Source of the DNA: Bispira polyomma
Lineage: Eukaryota
Direction: 5' to 3'
Assembly (NCBI GenBank): GCA_965649765.1
Contig: OZ287754.1
Coordinates: 36,394,001-36,458,000 of the forward strand
Length of the DNA: 64,000 bases
Shown: positions 32,275-47,900 of the stretch, one piece after another
Layout: the number at the start of each line of letters is the position of its first letter
Position numbering within the stretch: the first letter of the stretch is position 1
Made by a program: the position numbers and the translations under genes
Notes under the pieces: model-generated
Seen by the model: the letters and a program-made list of their open reading frames with translations, nothing else
What the model was told of the DNA's origin: nothing
The model's database searches: none

Positions 32275-33305
32275 TTGGAGCAGTGTATCACCATATTGCT
32301 ACTTAATATAGAGCTATAATGCCTGTATACAGCTTTGTATCACCATATTGCTACTTACTTTAGAGCTTTGATCTCTGTATAGAGCTCTGTATTGCCATAT
32401 TGCTACTTACAGCAGAGCTATAACGTCTGTATAGAGCTCTGTATTACCGTATTAATACTTACAGTAGAGCTATGATCTCTGTATAGAGCTCTGTATTACC
32501 ATATTACTACTTACTTTATAACTATAATTTCTGTATAGAGGACAGTATTACCATATTACTACTTATTGTAAAGCTATAATGTCTGTATAGAGCTCTGTAT
32601 TACCATATTACTACCTAAAGTAGAGCTATAATTTCTGTCTGCATAGAGCAGTGTATCACCATATTGCTACTTACAGTAGAGCTATAATGTCTGTATAGAG
32701 CTCTATATTACCATATTGCTATTTACAGTAGAGCTATGATCTCTGTATAGAGCTCTGTATTACCATATTACTACTTACAGTAGAGCTATAATGTCTGTAT
32801 ACAGCTTGTATTACCATATTACTACTTACAGTAGAGCTATAATGTCTGTATAGAGCTTTGCATAAGCATATTACTACCTACTTTAGAGCTATAACGTCTG
32901 TGTAGAGCTTTGTATTACCATATTGCTACTTATTCTAGAGCTATAATGTCTGTATAGAGCTTTGCGTTAGCATATTACTACTTACTTTAGAGCTATAATG
33001 TCTGTATAGAGCTTTGTATTACCATATTGCTACTTACTGTAGAGCTATAATCTCTGTATAGAGCTCTGCATTAGCCTATTACTACTTACTGCAAAGCTAT
33101 AATGTCTGTATAGAGCTCTGCATTAGCATATTACTACTTACTGCATAGCTATAATGTCTGTATAGAGCTTTGCATTAGCAAATTACTACTTACTGTAGAG
33201 CTATAATGTCTGAAAAGAGCTCTGTATTATCGTATTACTACTTACTGTAGAGCTATAATGTCTGTATATAGCTTTGTATTACCATATTGCTACTTACTGT
33301 AGAGC
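32275..33305. repeat. 52-bp minisatellite (~19-20 copies)
   Basis: Unit 'agagctataatgtctgtatagagctctgtattaccatattactacttacagt'; period 52 (32678 to 32730). Confidence 0.95.
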
Positions 33306-36300
33306 CAGGCTCCTGGGCTAGGTCCAGACTTGGTCTTAATCCTGTGTTCTGGAGTTCTTCTTTCTGGCTCGGGCAGCATCCGATCTGTTAAATATTGGAT
33401 ATGTTAAATCTTTTAAAATAGAAAAAAACTGACACAGCATACATATTTATTTGGTCAGTTAATATAAGTTTTCGCAGATACCAAGTTTTAAAAATTAAAT
33501 TAAAATCTGCTGACATTAGCTTAAGCTTTAGAGACCTGTGTCCTGATACTGTTTGACACATATTCTAGTATCTAGAGGAGTATTTTACGGCAACTCAACT
33601 TGTTATACACATAAGGTGGGCATTTAAGACACATTAAAGCCTGTAAATCAATCCACAATGTCATAACTGTAGTGAATGAAAGTAAAGCTTAGAGTGGTCG
33701 AGAGGTGACCTTAGTGAACAAAAACATTAGTATTACATCAGATATATTTAGTAATCCTTATAATAAGACATTTTTGAATTTTTACTTTTAAAGTTTCCTA
33801 TTTTATTCCTATCCTAGTTTACATTTGACTAATCCATTTTGGAATAATAAATGAATCAGTGCCTGAAACATGTGATTTGAATGACATTCATTTTATAATT
33901 TTGCTAACTCCCATTTTGTAACAATCATTTGCTTACCAAGTTTTCCACCAAAATCCACGAGTCCACTATTCTGTAACAAAATGCAAACAAGAAGTGACAC
34001 AAATGTCAGAATGATCAATCAGATGAGTCTCACGTAAAACTGCAAGAATTTATAATATCTCACAGCATCTCCTTAAAGTTAAGGCTACTATAACATAAAG
34101 TTAACCTCATTGCAGAGACTAAGTACAAACAAATTATTAAAGTTTAACTTTATTTATAAAAACTTTCAAGCTTTTCTTTAAAAAAGGGTGGCTAGTAGTT
34201 GATACAAGTATTTACCCTTGTAATTGCAATGTATGTTATGGTGTCATTTGTTTTAAAAGATCCATTTGACTATATTAATGTTCAAGCATATGTAATTGCA
34301 TATCCTAATACCCATAAACAAGTTAACAAATACATCATATATATATATATAGTCGGTGTATGGAATATTGAGGACGTAAGAAAGTGCATAGTAGCTGACT
34401 AAAATTGACGATACCTTACAAAACATATGCATAATATGCCCATCGGTTTATATTGCTTTTGATTAATTATCGCAATACAATACTTTGTTTTACATATTTA
34501 AAACATATTTAGAACAAATGCTCTGACTTTACCTTTTATAAACATAACTAATAGAACTATATTTCTGGAAGAACATATAGGCATACGCATTGCCAATGCT
34601 TTAATAATCCTTTAAATAATAATGTACAAATGTTTGTATGATAAGAAGGATTTCAAATAGTAGAAAAGAGATATGTATCAGCCAGATTCAAGCACTTTAC
34701 ATCCCAGGCCCAACTGAACATATCACCCTTATATTATCGGGTTTTCAGGCACTTTATCCCAATATATTTTCAGATGCCAAAAACCCAATTGGATTTGTTG
34801 TTTGAATTTACAAGAATGAACAGGTTCTAACCGCCAACTCAATAAAGTCAATGAATGCTTGTCTTGCCTATTTACTTACCCAGCTTGGAGCGCAGCATCC
34901 TTTCCATATTTGATACATAAATATCATAAAAATGCTACCTAGGCATATTAATTTCATATTTGCAATATTTCTGTTTAAGTTTTATTTACTCTCTTTAGTG
35001 TTGATTTTCTAACCTCCAAAGAGAAATTTTATCAGATTGGAAGTCTGTCAACGTTCTACTGCCTTTAATCTCCGTTTGAGCTTAATCACAACTAATTATT
35101 CTCACTAGAAACCAGATTCCTTTATAGGCAGATGACACTACCCTTTTAGCTTCATTAAAAAGAGGGGAGACTATTGTGTGATACAAAAAAAATAGTGAAG
35201 CATTTTCGTCACTTTGCTTTGTGTACATTTGTATATATAGGGGGCGGGAACTGTGTAGATGACAAAACTACTGGGATAATTACATCCGGGCTTTCTATGG
35301 CAGTGCAGACAATCTGGGGGTTAAGAGAGGTAAATTAGTAGTCAATTGGCAAGTTTAGTTTTGATGATCTACTTGAGGGTGTTCCAAACTGTCTGTGCTC
35401 ACCTGATGCCCTTTTATTTAACCTCCATGACACAGACTCTATAAAACACCAGATCACTCATATGTATTATCACTGTAACTATTCATCGTCAACTGTATGA
35501 GTTAATACAATTGCTGATGAAACCTTAGTTATTCCTCATTTAACTACTTCATAATATAGTATTTACAAACAGGAGACATGGACACTCTATTGATGAGGAT
35601 ATTATTAGGGATACAAGTCTAGTTTGAGATTTACTTAACATCTTAAGCTTTACTTGCACCCAGAAAAAAAATCTTAAATTAGATTTTTCAATTTACGTGA
35701 TCACTTAACTCGCCCAGGCCTAGGCATTCAAGAGATAAGTGTCATTGACTGCAATGAGCGTCTTTTATCAGCAATAAAAGTGTCCACCCACACCCTTTGG
35801 ATTATTTTTTGTCATATATAAATAAATAAAACCATTTACTTCTGCGACTCTATATTTATCCACGCCCTGTAAGGTTGAGGTAATGTGTGCTCTGTGTATA
35901 ATAATTGTGGCTTTTTGACAGGAGATAAATTATACAGACACAAGCAAAATGCACGGGTTTGAGGAATAAGTCCGAGATTTGTTGGGTTTTAGTTGAATTT
36001 TTTTTTAATTTTGCTGTTAACATGGTAATTTTGGAATATCTACATGGTGGGTGTACACTTCACAATCAGTTCATGGATTTTTTTCAAATACAGTCAAACA
36101 CTACAACAATTTATCTTTAATAGCATGCAAGTATTTGATTTGTAAAAGCTATAGTTCTGAGAAATAAATCTTTGATGTCTTATATTTTCATGAATATCTT
36201 GCATTAACTTTTCCGGGTTTTGCATATGAAGAAGCCGATTATTTAGTAATAACTCAGCAATTACTGAAGCTAAAACAATAATGAAAATATGGTCAGAAAG

Positions 36301-36883
36301 CTTAGTGTGCTTTTGTTGCATGAAATTTGCATGAAGATATTTAAGTTTAAATTCGGGTATCCCTCTTTTTTGCTGGTTTGTGGACTGCAGCTGAAGTGGG
36401 AAATTTTACGTGGCATGGTGTGACTGGAAAACATTACTTGAATTAGAAATAAATATAACCGATACCATATATTTGTAATCTAAATTGAATGCGTGCATTA
36501 TGACAAGCATCAGGTGTCAGTTTCCCCAAGTTGGGTTCAATAAAACCACTCATTAAGCCACCTTTGGCAGTAAATTTCCCGCCAAGAATTATTTACCTGC
36601 CCAAGAATAAACAATCTTGTCCTCATTATGGGGAAAAGCATTGAAGGAACAACAACTGAAAAAGGAACTACACTCCTTTTTGGAAGCCATTTTAACTTTA
36701 CATACAATCACAGGATATTTACTTACAAGATTTTATATAACTACAACATTTTAAAAGGAAAGACGCTATAATAACTATAAGTGCTTTTAATAGAAAGGAC
36801 GTTATATAATAAGTGTAGTAAATAGTGAAGTGGTGTTCTGTTACAAGTGCAACATCGGCAGTCTCGGCCTTGTGTAAGTCAGC

Positions 36884-38110
36884 ATGGGGCCTAAACAGAC
36901 CAGTAAGCAGCACAATACCAGAAGTAGGAATAGGGAGGTGTGTTACAAATGCAAGGCCAGTCATCGGTGGCCAGTAGGAGATCTCTGTACCAGGGAAGGA
37001 CCTCCCGACCAGACCCTGTCTTCTTCTGGGTCGGACAACCCGGATCAGTCTAATGCACCGGGTACATCTAGCCAACCACAGGATCTACAGGTGACACACA
37101 ACTCTGCAGCTGCAGGGGGGGATGAGTCATGAAACCAGTCAGTCAAGGCGAAGAAGAAACGCGTCGGCAATGCAGAGGTAGTAGCAAAGTTAGATTTATT
37201 TATGAGCAAATTGGCAAACCTGGAAGAGCGTGTGGCTCGACAGGAAGAACGCCGGGACACTGAATTGTCCCTCTCGACCCGGCCGTCAGCTCACAGCTCG
37301 CCCAAACGGAAAAGCACTGGTGAGAGGTCCGAAGGACGAGGACAGTCGGGCAAGGCTACCAAGCTGCCTACACTGGACTTCCTGTGGGGAAATACCACTA
37401 TTCAGGACGAAGTTGACAGAAGGTTAAGACAATATCAGGACGTATTCAGGGAAGACCTCACAGGTATTTTCATTAATAAAAAAACACTTAAGTCAGGGAG
37501 ATTACGTGTAGGGGATCAGAAGGTCAAGATTTCTGTTCCCTGGCTACATGAGCACTGTATGCTCAACGAAAACATGAAAATGCCTACATATGAAGACCTA
37601 ACACTGTGTCAGTGGGTTCAGGGCTATGCTCGTTGCGTGTTAGAGGAATCCGATGAGGAAGTGAGAAAGAACATGCTGCAGTACCAGTATTTACTGATGC
37701 AGGACGCTATTGATCTGTCCTGGGCTACGGCCAAAAGAGCACATGCAGCAGTGCTGTCCGAAATAGAAAGAGGAAATGTTACGTGGGAGGACACTGGGGA
37801 AATTGATCGGATCCGTCAGCGCTTTACGCAGAGGACCCTGAAAGGGGCTAGCTCGTCCATCTACAGTGGCTCGACTAAGGACCAGTCTCAGAACAGTAAG
37901 GTAACTGTGTGTCAAAAGTATGCAAAAGGGGTTTGTAAATTTGTAGGAGATCACTTTGAGGGGGGTAAAATGTTAAAACATTCTTGTGGCTATTGCTACA
38001 AAGCTGTCCATAAGAACTACGACCACCCCGAGGTAAAATGCAACAGAAAAGTAAAAGAAAGTGGCTCAAAGAGCCGTGATAATGGGGACAGGGCTGAACT
38101 GCGGGTTTAG
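36884..38110 (+). pseudogene. ORF1 gag-like protein with one in-frame TGA (37130-37132)
   Basis: The 82-aa ORF and 302-aa ORF share a frame (37202-36884=318) and the intervening codons are open. N-terminal CYKCKASH...DLC knuckle, coiled coil, KSGR.R.G motif, C-terminal CQKY.KG.C...H / H.CGYC...H...C zinc fingers. Confidence 0.8.
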
Positions 38111-40598
38111 TATAAAAAGGGCTCACTCTCACAGTATCACCAGTACTCGCTTACAAAGCAATCATTCTCAAGTAAAGGGGGGTATTGTAACAAATAACGA
38201 CATCTGGAAAAGTGGTTTCTGGCAAAGCAAACATTTAGGCCTTTGTAACTGTCAGTGGTGTGAGAAAGATACAAAAAATTATATATTGCAAGGATTTGAT
38301 ACTGTGGGCAGTGGTTTCCCTATGATGAGCTCCGCTACAGTAGATAGGGTGGATGAATGTAAATGTGTAATGGCAAACGCCACTTTGTTAGACAGTAAAT
38401 GTACCAGTGTCAATTACAACAGTTCTGATGCTAATGTAAGCTTCCTAGTTGATATCAATATAAACTACAGTGATAGTTTTTGGTTACACGAGTATCACAA
38501 TGTAAATAAGGCCAACAGTATTGACAAACATAGTCAGGTTAAGGTAGAGGTTAAGGACGACTCAGGGCTAGATGGTGTAATAGTCCATAATGTAGGGCAT
38601 ATAGAGAGTCTCATGTTTAATGCAGGCTCTGACGTGTCAAATCTGAACAGTGAAACAGGACAAGCCCAGGAATATTCGAGTAGTAGTGAAATTGGTAACA
38701 AGTCGATTAATGTCAGCACGGCCATCAAGCAAGGGCAATTTGGGGATATCCTTAAAAACAACAACGTCTGTGCACCCCCAACAATCAATCAATTAAGCCA
38801 GGGTGAAAGCCTAGTGGAGGACATTTCCTTACAAATAAAAGGGGGGAACCTCCAAGAATGGCTGGGAGGTTTTATTCCCATTCAATTAGGCCCCTTTGTG
38901 CAAATAAACAATAACACAGAAGGGGGGGAATTACAGAGTAGTGACATGGTGCAATGGATTGGGGAGGCACACACGTTAGCAAAACAAAAAGGCATACCTA
39001 ATTATAAAGGTGCTAAAGTGACAGTTCCCTCCCAATTAAATATCTCTGCCTGGCGTGCTTATTTAAAAGACTACGACCTCTCCATTGTTTGTGAATATTT
39101 ACAGTATGGTTTCCCCTTAACACTAGATTATAGTACTTTCCAGTACAGCTCACAAGTAAATAACCACTCGTCCGCAGTGGCTTACCCAATGGACGTAGAC
39201 AAGTATTTCAAAACTGAGGTTAGTTATAAGGCCATGGTGGGGCCTTTGAAAACTAGTCCCTTTGAAAACTTATATGTATCACCCTTAATGTCCAGGCCCA
39301 AACCAAATGGTAATAGAAGAATTATTGTGGACCTCTCATGGCCACGTGGAAATAGTGTAAACTCGTGTATACCTCAGAATTTCTTTGACAACATTGAATA
39401 TCAGCTGAAATACCCAACCATTGACAACATAGTGGAAAAAATTGCCACTCTAGGCCCACAATGTTTACTTTATAAAATTGACTTGCAAAGAGCCTATAGG
39501 AACTTAAGGACGGACCCCTTTGATTATTCTGTATTAGGCCTCAGTTGGCAAGGTAAACTGTATGTAGACATATCTGTCCCCTTTGGCCTTTCCTCTGGTG
39601 CATGCGCGTGTCAGATGAGGACTGATGGTATAACTTACCTCATGCACACTAATAATTATTGGGTATGTTCGTACCTTGATGATTGCATTGGGATTGCGCC
39701 TCCTGGAAAGGCTAGGTTAGCTTTCAAAACACTCTATAATTTAATACAAACACTAGGCCTGCCAATTAACCAAGACAAGGTGGATACTCCCACTAGTGAA
39801 CTAGTATGCTTAGGCATACAAATAAATGCACACACAGGGCGGCTCACAATACCCACAGACAAGTTAATAGAGGTTAAACAATTGTGTATACAATGGAAAA
39901 CCAAAACAAAAGCCACTCGTAAGGGTTTACAAAAGCTGTTAGGAAAACTCCTCTACATTCACCGGTGTGTAAAACCGGCCAGACTCTTTCTTAATAGAAT
40001 ACTTGGGGTTCTGAGGGGGACTCCCCCTGGCACAGCTGTTTCACTGGGTAACGAGTTCTACAAGGATATCAATTGGTTTTGTGAATTCTTGGAAGAATTT
40101 AACAGGGTTACTGAAATACACCAGATTGATGGCATAATTAATCAAGTTTATGTAGATGCATCACTAAATGGCTTGGGGGCCTACTGGGATGAACAAGTTT
40201 ATTCAGTACACATACCTCAACACAATAAGGACAGCCTTACTATTGTACATTTTGAGATGGTAAATGTAATTGTGGCTTTTAGACTATGGGGGCCCACATG
40301 GGCCAACCAAAAAATATGTGTCCACTGTGACAACTTAGCTGTGGTTCACATACTTAACAGATGTAAATGTAGAGACCCTTTTCCAAATGCATGTGCACGC
40401 ACATTATGGCTGTTACAGGCAACTTATAACATTGATATTTCAGTACAACATGTAAGGGGTATTGATAATACTTACGCTGATTTGTTATCACGTTGGGAGC
40501 ACTTTAAGAATACAGACAAGTCTGATGTAGCTTATTTACATACCTGTACATGGCATGAAGTAGATCCAACATGGCTCGTACCTAATTTTAATATTTAA
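38061..40598 (+). CDS. ORF2 reverse transcriptase + RNase H of the YR retrotransposon (845 aa, long variable N-terminus)
   Basis: YGFPL, RRIIVDLSWP, KIDLQRAYRNL, VPFGL, SYLDD, LGL.IN.DK, LQKLLGKL. RNase H motifs VDAS, HFEM, CDN.AVV, G.DN..AD.LSR. Confidence 0.95.
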   Translation: MAQRAVIMGTGLNCGFSIKRAHSHSITSTRLQSNHSQVKGGIVTNNDIWKSGFWQSKHLGLCNCQWCEKDTKNYILQGFDTVGSGFPMMSSATVDRVDECKCVMANATLLDSKCTSVNYNSSDANVSFLVDININYSDSFWLHEYHNVNKANSIDKHSQVKVEVKDDSGLDGVIVHNVGHIESLMFNAGSDVSNLNSETGQAQEYSSSSEIGNKSINVSTAIKQGQFGDILKNNNVCAPPTINQLSQGESLVEDISLQIKGGNLQEWLGGFIPIQLGPFVQINNNTEGGELQSSDMVQWIGEAHTLAKQKGIPNYKGAKVTVPSQLNISAWRAYLKDYDLSIVCEYLQYGFPLTLDYSTFQYSSQVNNHSSAVAYPMDVDKYFKTEVSYKAMVGPLKTSPFENLYVSPLMSRPKPNGNRRIIVDLSWPRGNSVNSCIPQNFFDNIEYQLKYPTIDNIVEKIATLGPQCLLYKIDLQRAYRNLRTDPFDYSVLGLSWQGKLYVDISVPFGLSSGACACQMRTDGITYLMHTNNYWVCSYLDDCIGIAPPGKARLAFKTLYNLIQTLGLPINQDKVDTPTSELVCLGIQINAHTGRLTIPTDKLIEVKQLCIQWKTKTKATRKGLQKLLGKLLYIHRCVKPARLFLNRILGVLRGTPPGTAVSLGNEFYKDINWFCEFLEEFNRVTEIHQIDGIINQVYVDASLNGLGAYWDEQVYSVHIPQHNKDSLTIVHFEMVNVIVAFRLWGPTWANQKICVHCDNLAVVHILNRCKCRDPFPNACARTLWLLQATYNIDISVQHVRGIDNTYADLLSRWEHFKNTDKSDVAYLHTCTWHEVDPTWLVPNFNI

Positions 40599-40608
40599 TT
40601 ATTTGCAG

Positions 40609-41566
40609 GTCACCCTCTGATAACTGGGTTGCTTCGAGATGTCAATACAAGGGTGTCCAAAGGATTCAGACCCCGCACTTCCACAGCCTATCAGGCAATG
40701 TTCAGGCTGTACATAGCCTTTCTAGCATACTTAAAGGTTAAGTCTCACACTCACCTTAATTCAGTGCTCCTTTTTCTAGAGTTTTTGGCCCAACAGGGTC
40801 TCAAGTCATCCACTCTCACAGGCTACATTACAGTGTTAAAACATTTCTTCCAAATGTATGACCTCCCCACCGGGGCTCTGTACCACAAAAAAGTGACTCT
40901 AGTCATTAAGTCAGTAGCAAATAATGCCCCACTTACATACAAAATCAAAGGTATTTTCTCCCCGGCTACACTGCAGCAGTTAGTTGCCTTGGCAACAGGG
41001 TTTCCTGGGGCTAAACAGTATAGGGCAATCTTTTTACTAGGGTTCTTTGGGTTCTATAGGTTGGCCACATTAGTGCCAAATACTGCCTCCCAGTTTCAAC
41101 CATCCAGGTTTCCAACAGAGAGTGACGTCATTTGGGGTTCACCTGGGGCGCATATCCTCACTAAGTGTGCTAAAAACATGCAAAAGTCGGGTCAGTTGCA
41201 AGTGGTCCAGATTCCTGAGCTTCCCAACTCACCTATCTGTCCTGTTAAGGCCTTGAAACGCATTGTGCCCAGAGACACCTCCAACAAGATGCCTTTATTT
41301 AAATGTTCTCATAGGGATACAACTGTAATCATAACTGCTTACCAGGTCAGGAAGGTACTGGCTTCACTCCTCACCAGGCTTGGCCTCCCTCCAGCCGAAT
41401 TGGGGTTCCATGCACTCCGACGTTCGGGGGCCTCGTGGGCTTTTGACCATAATGTTGAATTAGATCATATAAAAGTCCATGGGGGCTGGCGCTCAGACAC
41501 TACCTTATCAAAACCCCATTGGCGGCAAGTAAGGTTGCAACCACATTCACACAACATCTTACATAA
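40609..41566 (+). pseudogene. ORF3 tyrosine recombinase with a frameshift just before the catalytic Tyr
   Basis: FFGFYRLATL (R), CPV.AL, FHALRRSGA (H-x-x-R), HGGWRSD (H/W). After 41500 the expected Y-L-I-K-T-P...TFTQHLT* continues in another frame (TAC at 41501, TAA at 41564-41566). Confidence 0.88.
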
Positions 41567-41659
41567 ACAAGCTCATATTCCTACCTGTTTGGGTTGGTAG
41601 ATAATTCTAAACCTACAACATTAGTGTAAATAGTTAAGTAGTACAGTAACTAACAAGTT

Positions 41660-41935
41660 AATAGGTTAACCTTAAAGCTCAACTTAAGCTTAAGATAACC
41701 TTAACTCATAAGGTCACCTTAAAGTCACAGTGTAGTGGCCCTCATGTGTTAACCTTACCTCAAGATAGGGACAGCGGTTTACCAGGTAAGGTCACCATAA
41801 AGTCACCAATAAAAGTGCAAGCTAATGAATTGCCACGATTAACCTCCCCTATAGTTAAGGACAACTTGTGTTAGCATTAAGGTCACCTTAAAGACAAGTT
41901 AAGGCCTCGGCCATGATTTAAGGTGACCTTATGTC
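41660..41935. repeat. Cluster of palindromic TAAGGT(C/G)ACCTTA / GTTAACCTTA motifs in the 3' non-coding region of the YR retrotransposon
   Basis: taaggtcacc(t/a)taaag at ~41709, 41787, 41878; taaggtgacctta at ~41919; gttaacctta at ~41665 and ~41748. Confidence 0.7.
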
Positions 41936-42284
41936 AGTAGAGTAGTGATTAACCCTGTATAATTTGTGTGTGTATGTAATAAAGCCCAAAAGATGTAATA
42001 AACTCGTTTTTACTCTCTGCCTTATGTTCCAAAATACACTTGTATCAACTTAGATCACCTCGATCTCTTACCTTACAGCTTGGGGAAACTGATACCACAG
42101 GTATGCCCTACTTTTTGACGACAGAATTTAATAAAAAATTAGATTCTGCAATAACGGTAGTTTAGTACAACACTGGTGAAATCAAGGGTTCCAAATATTT
42201 AAATGGTCTAAACAAATAACATAAAGCTTAAAGTGAGAAAATTGCATCAGAATATTTGTTTCAAGAGCTAAAACTTTCCATTAA

Positions 42285-43837
42285 TACCCGTGTTTCACTA
42301 CACCGATCATAGACTCTGACCGTTATGATTATGTGATCAGGGGATACTCGAATACATAATCAGGAAGGTTGAGGAGGTCGTAATACTTATCTTTGATTTT
42401 GGGGCCACTCAGGATCCTTTGGCAAAAAAACCTTTGCGAGTGGGTGATTATTGGCCAATAAGTCATGGTCACTTGGGGCCACTCATAACCTTTGTTACAA
42501 AGGCCCGAGTAAAAATATAACTCAGGGGAAACAAAAGATAACTTGGGGGTGACAAAAGATAACTCACGGAGGACGTTAGAGACAGTGAATGAGGAGGAGT
42601 ACAGGGAGTTTCATCGGGGAGAAGACACTTCTGGAAGAAAGCGTGCCAGAGACACAGCTGTCACAGATGGGTTTGTTGTCGCAGGATGAGACACAGGAGA
42701 CACAGGACACCGCTGGGGATATTGAAGTGGCTGGTATCATCAGGAGGCAGAAGGAGAAAATGAGGAAAGTTTACTTATGGATGGCCAGGAGGAGGCTGTG
42801 GTGGGATTGGTGGGTCATCTTCTGGATTTTGTGCTGTATTGCCTGATTTATAGTAGTGGTTCTCATCATATTGTGTAGGACGACACAGGCTAGGGCTACA
42901 GTGGCTACCACTGGTAGTTCTTGCTGCATGGTAGAGAGTAGAACCCTGAACCTCTGTACTAGGATGCTAAAGGAATTCTCTACCACCCTTCTCCCTTGGG
43001 AAATCTTGTAGTTGTAAATCCTCTCATTCGTGTCCATGCCTAATTTAGAGAAGGGTTTCATATGCCAGGTCTTCAGTACAAAGGCATCATCTGCAAGGAT
43101 AAAGTAGGGGATTGGGTGCCTAAAAGGGCTTATGGCTTCAGGAGAGGGGAAGTTGATGGACTAATCTGATATCGTCTCCTTAGTTCTGACCTATTGAAAT
43201 CTGGGAATCTGAGCAGGACCCACTAGATCCCAGGTCGACCCACAGGAACCTGTACTCTCTGTCTACCAAAGACCTTCACCTCCCCACTACCAAAGAGTAC
43301 TACAGTGATGTGTATGACTCCTTAGTCGCCAAATGTCTCAAAGTGATAGCTATCTTGAGTCCAGGTGACAGTGGTTTTCTAAACCAGGTGGTCTGGTCTG
43401 TATCCTGTGCCCCACCCTCCTCTCCATTTCCTGGAATAATTCTGGGGCATCCTCAAAATATTCATCAGAGACGTCTTCTTCTTCCTTCAATGTCTATATT
43501 AGCCATTACTTGTAGTTGCATGTAGGCAAGTAAACCTTGGAGGCCTCTTGCAATTTCTATTAATCTCTATGGAACCATCTCTTTCAGTTGACTGAACAGT
43601 TAAAACTGACTGGATACATGGTTCCACCCTCTTTATATATGTTTTTTGGGGGGGCAATCTGGAGGTTTCGAGGTTTGTATGACTTATCTTTTCAGTCGTT
43701 AACCACTACGAGTATAATCGAATGACACACATTTTCGCAAGCTTTATGCCACAGATCGGGGAACAATGGGGTAAAAATGACCACAATCAAATTATTGGGG
43801 CCTTGCCCCAATCGATCGGCTAAGTGGAACAGGGGCT
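42285..43837 (-). mobile_element. Internally deleted PIF/Harbinger DNA transposon with a decayed DDE (HARBI1-like) transposase
   Basis: TIRs TACCCGTGTTTCACTACACCGATC / rc AGCCCCTGTTCCACTTAGCCGATC (17/24). TAA TSD at 42282-42284 and 43838-43840. Minus-strand peptides: FRKPLSPGLKIAITLRHLAT, LVDREYRFLWVDLG, PYFILADDAF..KTWHMKPFS, YNYKISQGRRVVENSF, ACVVLHN. Confidence 0.88.
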
Positions 43838-44369
43838 TAATACCTTAACCAGTGTTATACAACTTGTGCAACCCCTTAAGGTCTTTACTAAATTGCCGTC
43901 AGTTCCAGTGTCTGAATCAATAACTACATCATTACATTCAAAAATGACATTGATAACCAATGGCAACTCCTTGAATAGTTCCTTGTGATTTTACAAATGT
44001 TTTAAAGCAAAATAGGAGCATGTATTTGTACGGACTGTGGTTATTCAAATCAGCCAATCCTATTCGATTGTGGTCCAGTACTTTACATTCACTTGTGTGT
44101 CATGACTTATAAGAACAGTAGATCAAACTTTTTCATGTGAAAAAGTACGCAAAAATTACTTTATAAATAAAGATTGCTACCCATAACTGATGTCCTTTAT
44201 CAATAAATACAATCATTGCAGTATAACATAACATACTGAAAGTTATGTATGAGCAAGTGTTCAGTAAGTCCAAATAAACTAAACTCCTGCGTAGTACTAG
44301 TTTTTACCATTAAAAGCTGGAATATACATTTCTCCAGAATAGTAATTTAAGAATTTTCTCCAAGTCATT

Positions 44370-44487
44370 ATGTCATTGTGAATTAGGTCATAAAGTCATT
44401 GTGAATTAGGTCAAAAGGTCATTGTGAATTAGGTCATAAAGTCATTGTGAATAAGGTCATAAAGTCAATGTGAATTAGGTCATAAAT
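44370..44487. repeat. 23-bp tandem repeat (~5 copies)
   Basis: Unit 'gtcattgtgaattaggtcataaa'. Confidence 0.9.
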
Positions 44488-44939
44488 TTTCAAACAGATA
44501 TATCAATTCAGGGCACTTCTGATTAGGCCTTTTCCACACATATTTACCAATTTAAGGCAGTTCTAATCAGGCTTTTTCCAAGCAGATATATCCATTCAGG
44601 GCAGTTGTAATCAGGCCTTTTCACACAGACATATCAGGGTGCATCTAAGCCATACATCAAACAATGATTTAAGAATATGGTTAACCACTTTTAATCTTGA
44701 TGGTTAACTTGTATAGGGTAGATTTGAAATGTAATTATGCATTTAATTGTATCTGTCACAGTCTGATATTGCCTTGATGCTTCCCAGATTACTACGTTAC
44801 AGTGAATACACATACATGAAGAAATGACAGGTTATGATACACTTTGATATCACAAATATCACCACTTGTTCCATATATCAGTAAAACACGGGTGATATGA
44901 TATCAATCATACAGTTCGCTTAATATAAAAGTTGACTAT

Positions 44940-47900
44940 TTATCCTTCACACTGGGGTGTAATGAAGCTTTTTGTAGTCATAGTAACTGCTCCATCATTG
45001 GTAGAAAACAAGAAGCAGATTCTCTGCTCCGCCTCGAATGTAAAGGAATATGTAGCAGATTCTGCAGAAGCTAAAGTTGCACAATGGATGTAACTCCTGG
45101 CAGGTAATGACAGAAAGTACCCACTGCTTGCACCTGGGCTCGAATTTTTGATGGCCTTGACATCTATGACGTCACATGGAAGATCAACTTCAACAGGAAG
45201 AAAAACATTCATGGAATGTAATAGTTCAGTTGTTATAAATGTATATCATTCGGACACAAAGTTTTTGGGTTGCATATCATTATTATTATTACTTACGATG
45301 TATAATTATATATATATTTAAATATTTTGAATTCCTAAATTGCATTAAACCTTAATAATCAAAATTGTCTTGCTTTTACTGCAAAAGCAATAATGCGACA
45401 GGGTATTAACAGAGATTATAATCCACTGTATGAAATCAATTAAATGCATATCAAATGTATATATTTCTGAGTACACTTTAAGAATTCTGACAAATAAAAA
45501 AGACAAAAAAAAAAATCTTGATTAATGATTTTAAAAATCCTGTGTTCTTACCTCCAAGAAACAGATCACTCGGTACAAATTCAATATTACAGAGACATAC
45601 CTCCTATTAACAGATCACTCGGTACAAATTTAATATTTTAGAGTCTTACCTTCTAGTAACAGATCACTCGGTACAAATTCAATGTTATAGGGACATCTGC
45701 TCAGCCATTTGATGTTACAAAGGCAGGGGATGGGGTTTGAAATTAGGTACAATTTAAAACCATCTGGGCTGATTGAATCGAACCTGGGTTTACAATATTC
45801 TGGGAATGTTTGTATGTCATTTGAGTAGAGACCAATTTCCTCCAACGACACCGCGTCCAGGTGGCCAAGTGGTAAAACTGTGCTAATAGAGTTTTCCCCA
45901 AGACATAAAGTTTGCAAGTTAACAAAACTTGCAAAGTGCTTAAGATCTAAGGTGATTAGTTCATTGTCAGTGAGACTCAGTTCTATGAGAGTGGCCTTCG
46001 TAAAGTCAAGGTCGGGTAGTTTAGTGAGTTTGTTAGTATTGGCATGGAAAACCTGCAGTGTCGAAACCTGGTCACTGATGATGCTCATATCTAACTCTTC
46101 ATCGGTCATAGATCGGTAGGAAAGACTGTAACGTAAAATAAACAACAGAACATTATAATATGTACAACCCCCTCAAAATAGGCTACCACCTCTTTATAAA
46201 TACCGCCTAATTCTGCTTGACTGCAGTCATATTCTGAAATGATACACAATGTATTGACGGTTGTACTGTTTTCATAGATCAATGACGATAGACGTAGATG
46301 TATAATTTATTTATTTCATACAGAATAGGTTGTTGTTAATACAGTTATACACCTGACATTGTTGAACGTCATTATAATAGTACTACCTTGGATAATAAAT
46401 TTATCAAAAGACAAGTGTTCCATGTGTTGGCCTTTTTTAGTGTTAAGCCCTGTTGCCATACAAGCAGAGACGGTGGTGGGAGTTGAACGGTGATGAACAG
46501 TGAACAGAATATAAAGTTTGCTTTGCTGTTTGGTTTCTGGTGACACTGAACAAATGAGAGGCAAAACATATTTTTTACCACTGGGTAAAGTATGCCATAA
46601 TACTTATTGGAAGAACTTACGACTTGTATTGGCCTACTTATGGTATGGTTACTTTTTTTCGATGAATAATTTCACATAGCAAAACGATAATGTACCTGTA
46701 CTGTAATTACACTCCTATAGTGGTATCATTGTTAAAAAGCAAATTTGTTTTACTTCAAATATTTAAAAACAATCAATTATGTCTAACTGTTGTAATTATT
46801 TTAATATACAGACCACAAGAAAAATATTTTAAAGGTAACAACGATTATTTGTTTTACACCAGTCTGAGGTCCTGGTTTAAAAGGACGAGGTGTGTTTGTG
46901 TTACTCAAAAATCCTTTAAAGTCAAAGGTGACTGTTAAATACTATGTACAAAGTACAATAATCTGTAGTCCAGACTAGAAGTCTGAAAAGCTTTGGGACT
47001 ATATCACATATAACACATGACCTTCTTATAACACAAGTATCTCATAGGGGTGACTAGAGATTTTTTTATGTCAGTACTACAGTAAATTCTATAATTTTCT
47101 GTTGTCGATTACATACTCTAACCATTGTGTATCCCACGGTATGTCCGTTGGTAGGTTTAGTTGATCACTGCCATAGCACTGATATGTTTTGTAAAGTGTA
47201 TTGTCATCGACAAAGCTCCTGCCAAAATAACCAACACCCGGATTGCAGGACGAATATACCTGGGTCCACTGTATGACGAAAATCAATGCTCCTAAATTTT
47301 TTGGGGAAAAAATTACAATTACAAAAGTATCATATACAAATGAAAAACTTTGCAGTGATTTAACAAAAGTAGCTGCTGTTGATTTTAAATGACTGATGTA
47401 TGCAAACAAAAGAATTGTTTAAAAATATTATATATATTATTGGGATGATCAAAGCATTGCATTGCACACTAAAATGTCAGTCAGCAGAATGCATTTTCAT
47501 CTCTCAGGTTGTCACATACACATAACCTCAACAAATGTTTTTTTACTATTCTGCCACGTTCCACCCTGGTGGAGATCTGCAATTCACTATAATGGCTTCC
47601 CACTGGACCCATGTCCTAGCCCTATACAGAGTGCCACCCTGGTGGAGATCTGCACTACACTATAATGGCTTCCCACTGGACCCATGTCCTAGCCCTATAC
47701 AGAGTGCCACCCTGGTGGAGATCTGCACTACACTATAATGGCTTCCTACTGGACCCATGTCCTAGCCCTATACAGAGTGCCACCCTGGTGGAGATCTGCA
47801 CTACACCATAATGCCTTCCTACTGGACCCATGTCCTAGCCCTATACAGAGTGCCACCCTGGTGGAGATCTGCACTACACTATAATGGCTTCCTACTGGAC

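Follow-up and report, generated by a model that had tools for sequence, protein, structure and literature searches.

We analyzed a 64,000-nucleotide stretch of Bispira polyomma DNA (contig OZ287754.1, positions 36,394,001 to 36,458,000 of the forward strand; hereafter the window, numbered from its first letter), which contains a dead copy of a Ngaro-like tyrosine-recombinase (YR) retrotransposon. Its three open reading frames (ORFs) correspond to a gag-like protein (ORF1), a polymerase with a reverse transcriptase (RT; ORF2) and the YR (ORF3). Comparison with related elements strongly suggests that this clade splices an N-terminal part of Gag to YR, which is the best overall explanation of the data. 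In the proposed mechanism, one transcript would exist in two forms. The unspliced RNA would be the genome and the mRNA for Gag, with Gag-Pol made through recoding at the gag stop. In a fraction of the RNA, the host spliceosome would join a donor midway through gag to an acceptor immediately after the RT stop. The spliced product, a Gag(1-193)-YR fusion of about 518 residues in unbroken relatives (193 + 1 + 324; L018 and L020 have 324 open YR codons), would be the recombinase of the element.

In the window copy, all of the features concerned lie on the forward strand. The coding part of the proposed exon 1 (36884-37463) comprises 580 nt, that is Gag codons 1-193 plus one nucleotide, and its product contains a C-x2-C-x3-H-x7-C motif and predicted helices at residues 96-127 and 164-193. 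It ends at a proposed 5' splice site in phase 1, CAG|GTATTT (37461-37469), where the sequence ACAG|GTATTT breaks at 37463/37464. The proposed intron of 3145 nt (37464-40608) holds the rest of gag and all of the RT/RNase H region. Near its end are a branch-point-like CTAAT inside the last RT codons (40582-40586), the RT stop TAA (40596-40598), a T-rich spacer and the proposed 3' splice site, CAG|G in phase 1 (40596-40608 from the stop onwards; TTTGCAG|G at 40608/40609). ORF3, the proposed exon 2, follows at 40609-41600. The original prediction of this splicing event had given a TGA at 37130, both splice sites, the branch-like site, the RT stop and the intron length, and all of these positions were re-derived, as were the gag ATG at 36884, the phase 1 of donor and acceptor and the common frame of ORF2 and ORF3.

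The window copy is dead, as it carries a private stop in gag, the TGA at 37130-37132, and a 10-nt deletion near 41498 in ORF3, which shifts the frame before the catalytic Tyr; the test of splicing must therefore rest on relatives. The need for intact members had been anticipated, and a sense codon was found in place of the TGA in all 24 close-copy loci covering it. ORF3 had been described as lacking an ATG until 40698, which is correct, and this ATG is itself private, being absent from 24 of 24 close-copy loci, so that the family lacks even that start. The other copies have no upstream ATG either, and keep the TAA.

Besides the window copy, the 1.04-Gb genome contains 11 near full-length copies at 97-98% identity and subfamilies at about 82% and about 75%. 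Close copies were compared at 29 other loci, a few of them overlapping. For the wider comparison, 92 elements were grouped into 47 families, with 85% nucleotide identity across YR as the threshold. They comprise 60 of 132 scored matches (hand-picked for spread and few stops), 20 of 122 distant matches, 7 of 30 near loci and 5 of 26 metagenome loci, the last being the contigs L141-L145 from other organisms, and their YR identity to the window ranges from 24 to 100%. Four further metagenome loci (L147, L154, L158 and L160) were dropped, having 19-27% identity and no RT or gag match. The donor was assessed in 40 families, seven being omitted because gag was not mappable, and the RT stop in 37, ten being omitted since in all of their members the RT end was broken, missing or more than 40 nt from the YR start (342 nt in L141). 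A YR search of the genome returned 12,578 first-look candidates, which is not a copy count; given this number and the 42 families found among the 87 elements sampled, the Ngaro-like elements of this host form a very large radiation.

With regard to the donor, it is retained in all 25 close-copy loci that cover the site. Across the 40 families, G|GTA lies in phase 1, at most 17 codons before the Gly of the KSG motif, in 39, and in phase 0 or 2 in none. Six shifted windows of gag, used as controls, gave at most 8 of 40 families, and no conserved G|GTA was found in any of them, a scan that covered gag and not the 5' leader. The constraint appears to act on the DNA and not on the protein, because the flanking residues vary while the bases stay and because GGT followed by A is rare at other gag Gly codons (31/231, and 7/40 at the KSG Gly). 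The residue preceding the donor varies among P, Q, T, S, A and K, but the base at -2 is A in 36 of 39 families; the residue after it may be K, I, T, M or N, and its first base is always A. In the distant families the donor is the GTAAG of the canonical splice consensus, and in the near clade it is GTA followed by T or C. When a relative's Gag was modelled with AlphaFold (mean pLDDT 62.6), the donor position lay where helix 171-193 gives way to a linker of low confidence, ahead of the helical core.

The acceptor shows a comparable regularity. The first AG past the RT stop is in phase 1 relative to YR in 37/37 families, L113 satisfying this rule only through a downstream AG. A YAG within -25 to +10 nt was found in 36 of the 37, with C or T as the -3 base in 36 and L123 failing. 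The spacer between RT stop and acceptor is non-coding, 6 to 45 nt long, and consists of 55% T (220/396) and 6% C (22/396). YTRAY occurs at -40 to -16 in 30/36 families, compared with 10.9 expected from shuffles, its A mostly at -22 to -26. The position of the acceptor relative to YR changes (-2 in 28, -5 in 11, -17 in 2, +7 in 2 and -23 in 1) while its phase is constant. GT...AG ends and the branch-like YTRAY agree with a U2-type intron, whose 3' tract is here T/A-rich rather than C/T-rich. The distance between donor and acceptor is 2600-4597 nt in 39 family representatives. Among the close copies, YAG|G is kept in 22 of 24 loci, the failures being one point change and one deletion, and the only frequent change is from CAG to TAG. 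A phase-1 YAG stands where YR begins in all five contigs from other organisms, two of which (L141 and L143) have the donor as well. Of seven homologous proteins reaching the site, six read V, A or S and then G, D, E or S, which is compatible with a phase-1 YAG, a hint only, as no DNA was compared. We also observed that RT ends in ATT followed by TAA or TGA (40593-40598 in the window, and homologous sites) in 22/24 near families, whatever the YR frame; this ending may belong to the splice signal, or be another stop that is prone to shifting.

The pattern of donor and acceptor is judged to be more than chance, because the donor occurs in phase 1 only (0/39/0 of 40 families, controls at most 8/40) and the first AG is in phase 1 in all 37 families. 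The conservation in relatives that the original prediction had called for was thus found for donor, branch-like site, acceptor and phase across 40-47 families, and its reading of a splice-made Gag(N)-YR, in families with no shared ATG or frame, is well supported. That splicing takes place is very probable, given the signals, their phase and their conservation, and it is only slightly less so that the Gag(N)-YR fusion is the working recombinase.

Several observations weigh against this reading. The signals were read from DNA, and the families share ancestry, so that the counts are not independent trials and a binomial P value was not relied upon. The match in phase between donor and acceptor has by itself a prior of 1 in 3. 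The donor of the near clade is weak at +4 to +6, and the donor G is missing from L098. The homologous AG is missing from L104, L113 and L123, and in L112 its place is taken by foreign sequence; all five elements are single copies. A looser positional rule for the acceptor gave phases 0/1/2 of 5/44/5 in 47 families, and constitutes weaker evidence because its controls within coding sequence reach 26/47. An in-frame ATG by +60 nt of YR is present in 9/37 families. Finally, no spliced retrocopy was found by a junction-motif search of the genome for the four nearest families, and adjacent exon ends were not seen among 40+41 matches for the window family or 40+40 for the largest family, each search covering the best 40 scored candidates. 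Spliced retrocopies would not be expected if packaging needs intron sequence, which does not count as support.

Other searches were also negative. The 37463/40609 junction was not among the best 15 of 37 joints in three DNA-like sequencing runs, which as DNA reads are uninformative on splicing. A search for longer YR homologues, of 519-2000 residues, found none among 5469 candidates, a weak test given that the predicted fusion lies at the lower limit. A metagenome scan with a single protein gave 0/163, and a search of prokaryote genomes gave one weak match. For Gag, the best Z score in a fold search was 4.9, with nothing clear. The ESM Atlas returned unnamed clusters only. By eye, no second acceptor was seen in front of RT.

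The best-surviving alternative, which we nevertheless consider very unlikely, is a Pol-YR fusion, with YR produced through ribosomal frameshifting at the RT stop or through its readthrough. Frameshifting was supposed for Ngaro by Poulter and Butler (2015; quoted in PMC13003380), and the -1 arrangement is the commonest, the RT-to-YR frame being -1 in 23, +1 in 9 and 0 in 5 of 37 families. Among the -1 families, however, the overlap is at most 12 nt in 17/23 and a slippery heptamer is present in only 3/23; of the nine +1 families, eight leave a +1 shift open, but in the largest of the nine a stop blocks it. The resemblance of ATT+stop at the RT end to the GTT+stop at the end of gag also slightly favours Pol-YR recoding. 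The three offsets count against it, as well supported branches of the tree force at least seven changes between them. Some of these changes could be artefacts of single dead copies, but multi-copy families hold each offset. Since the RT-to-YR frame differs among families (-1, +1, 0), neither readthrough nor a single frameshift can, on this comparison, be the shared mechanism. Readthrough had been offered by the original prediction on account of the common frame of ORF2 and ORF3, and as a shared route it does not hold, RT and YR sharing a frame in only 5/37 families. A Pol-YR fusion also leaves unexplained the invariant non-coding YAG, the donor and the 342-nt gap between RT stop and YR in L141. 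A minor recoded Pol-YR product may be made in some families.

Slightly less probable still is that the signals are real but unpaired, the donor serving for U1 protection of the long RNA or for another acceptor, and the acceptor being joined to another donor. U1-dependent control of termination has been described for the Copia element EVD (PMC5580714), and the pairing of donor and acceptor is indeed inferred. Against this stand their matching phases, the lack of a conserved G|GTA in the other gag windows and the need of YR for an upstream AUG, which the join of donor to acceptor would supply. As for start codons, no in-frame ATG precedes +60 nt of YR in 28/37 families, the first one ranges from -150 to +678 over the 37 and is not conserved, and in some families there is none before +567 to +678, beyond the first catalytic Arg. 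The weakest alternative is that YR has its own mRNA or start, by an internal promoter, by reinitiation or an internal ribosome entry site at a downstream AUG or near-cognate codon, or by spliced-leader trans-splicing onto the acceptor; the families with an early ATG would fit it and an acceptor alone would suit trans-splicing, but it can hardly hold when the first ATG is so variable, a leader without AUG leaves YR startless, and the phase-matched, conserved gag donor goes unexplained.

If splicing does join Gag(N) to YR, the weak donor may well limit the dose of recombinase, a reasonably likely consequence. A role of the Gag part in carrying YR to the particle or the cDNA is more tentative, with chances somewhat short of even. 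When the complex of Gag 90-193 with Gag 90-330 was predicted, the score was 0.02, which gives no verdict.

The expression of pol appears to follow a separate route. In the window, gag ends in GTT and a stop (38105-38110), a candidate +1 frameshift site into pol, and the same arrangement, with pol in +1, is found in 25/26 near families. The stop after GTT is TGA in 12, TAA in 7 and TAG in 6, the preceding codon is any of seven Arg or Lys codons, and the next base is T in 22 and C in 3 of the 25. Where unbroken, ORF2 in the +1 frame opens 17-98 nt before the gag stop, with no fixed ATG. It is probable that the near clade makes pol by a +1 shift at this site. In four distant families pol lies in frame 0 behind the gag stop, often behind TAG-G, which suggests readthrough. 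We consider it marginally favoured that in a large Ngaro branch the making of the recombinase by splicing, from within gag to a site past the RT stop, is both ancestral and general, with pol made by recoding at the gag stop, through +1 shifting on GUU-stop in one clade and readthrough in others.

The window copy extends from 36481 to 42091. It begins with the 5' terminal repeat A1 of a split-direct-repeat element (36481-36665), which the A2 of L002 matches at 97%, and the flanks of the copies diverge upstream of 36481. ORF1 (36884-38110), broken by its private TGA, is called gag from its position and Cys/His motifs, no Pfam family having matched; other elements have uninterrupted ORF1s of about 390-460 codons. 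ORF2 (38055-40598) consists of a variable N-terminal part, RT and an RNase H-like end. Its RT matches Pfam RVT_1 at E=3e-06, under the Pfam cut-off, and its end, which has no Pfam match, we take to be RNase H-like from its motifs. The N-terminal part of pol (38055-38950 in the window) has 300-460 residues and is poorly conserved, preceding a conserved WLRGF(I/V)P motif. In ORF3, Phage_int_SAM_1 (E=0.0012) and Phage_integrase (E=0.0026) are likewise under the cut-off, and the YR motifs R, H-x-x-R and H-G-x-W align with 19 homologues. The 3' repeat B (41597-42091), matched by the B2 of L002 at 98%, closes the copy, which lacks A2-B2.

The element was classified as Ngaro-like, an assignment made without a tree including named reference elements, because split direct repeats (A1-ORFs-B1-A2-B2) are present in 7 of the 18 loci examined (L002, L009, L011, L018, L021, L026 and L030) and because pol has no methyltransferase. 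The gag, RT/RNase H and YR ORFs follow in that order on one strand. ORF2 ends about 37 residues past the last RNase H motif, and a Pfam search of the window element gave no match to a Dam methyltransferase domain. The window copy and most of the other loci examined end after a single B repeat. The original prediction spoke of DIRS/Ngaro recombinases; of the two, Ngaro stands and DIRS1-like falls. A DIRS1-like element, with inverted ends and an internal complementary region, was rejected, the repeats being direct with only a 21-nt inverted match between the ends; so were DIRS1-like and PAT-like elements generally, from the absence in pol of the methyltransferase attributed to them (PMC4157794). 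The 21-nt match joins the start of A (36513-36533) to the end of B (42076-42096), and could form a hairpin at the B1/A2 junction, where the two are adjacent in full copies. Full copies also carry an extra 480-540 nt between A2 and B2 (L002 778-1315, minus strand; L009, L011 and L018), absent from the window and 81% identical between subfamilies; an Rfam search of this region of L002 gave no match. A contig joining the flanks without the element (36479-42135) is present in all three sequencing runs, on which account they look like DNA, and the insertion is therefore absent from some chromosomes. Elsewhere in the window are a DDE_Tnp_4 transposase fragment (42771-43160, minus strand, E=1.9e-13) and tandem arrays at 33000-33357, 44341-44622 and 45546-45696, with periods of 52, 23, 44 and 49 nt.

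How YR retrotransposons express three ORFs is an open point that has been filled in review by a guess of frameshifting, and splicing offers a precise alternative, testable in dozens of families. If it is correct, the integrase of these elements would be a Gag fusion overlooked by ORF-based annotation, and the recombinase would be redefined with about 190 extra residues bearing a Cys/His motif and helices. The free shuffling of RT and YR frames in fungal Ngaro would be a footprint of splicing. The elements would be under host splicing control, as gypsy and Copia are, and a retrovirus-like plan of gag, recoded gag-pol and a spliced third gene would exist in a retroelement order that integrates by different chemistry.

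The following comparisons draw on excerpts of the cited papers. The elements resemble the known Ngaro in the order of gag, RT/RNase H and YR, the split direct repeats, the lack of a methyltransferase and the variable RT/YR frame, YR being in frame or frameshifted relative to RT-RH in all fungal Ngaro groups (PMC3783388). They differ in the extra region between A2 and B2 of full copies, and in that YR comes after the RT stop, barely overlapping RT if at all, and carries splice signals, whereas in Ngaro its production is assumed to be by programmed frameshifts (PMC13003380). A splice-made YR appears to contradict that guess. In the excerpts of the literature searched, including PMC7192593, PMC8547959, PMC9210276, PMC6681497, PMC9341512, PMC2632668 and PMC4495291, spliced YR expression is not described; an earlier mention is possible in Goodwin and Poulter 2004, Poulter and Goodwin 2005, Poulter and Butler 2015, Repbase notes or supplements such as the Ectocarpus family notes of PMC12477816. 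At the gag stop, the likeness is to closteroviruses, in which ORF1 ends in GUU and a stop (GUU_stop_C) with the polymerase ORF in +1 (PMC3542737), whereas here the next base is mostly T and not C and the motif is limited to the near clade.

Spliced subgenomic RNA is known in retroelements, and what would be new is splicing for the integrating enzyme. In long terminal repeat elements, integrase is part of Pol. In the Arabidopsis Ty1/Copia element EVD, alternative splicing sets the ratio of structural to catalytic protein (PMC5580714), and splicing of the element's RNA would likewise govern a protein ratio here. In EVD, however, it yields Gag alone in excess, whereas in the present elements it would remove pol and create a Gag-enzyme fusion. 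The Drosophila errantivirus gypsy makes pol by a frameshift from gag and its third ORF from a spliced subgenomic RNA (PMC4276936), the same combination of recoded pol and spliced third ORF as is proposed here. In contrast to gypsy and retroviral Env, which is made from an mRNA without gag and pol, the integrating enzyme of the Ngaro-like elements would be fused to about 190 residues of Gag.

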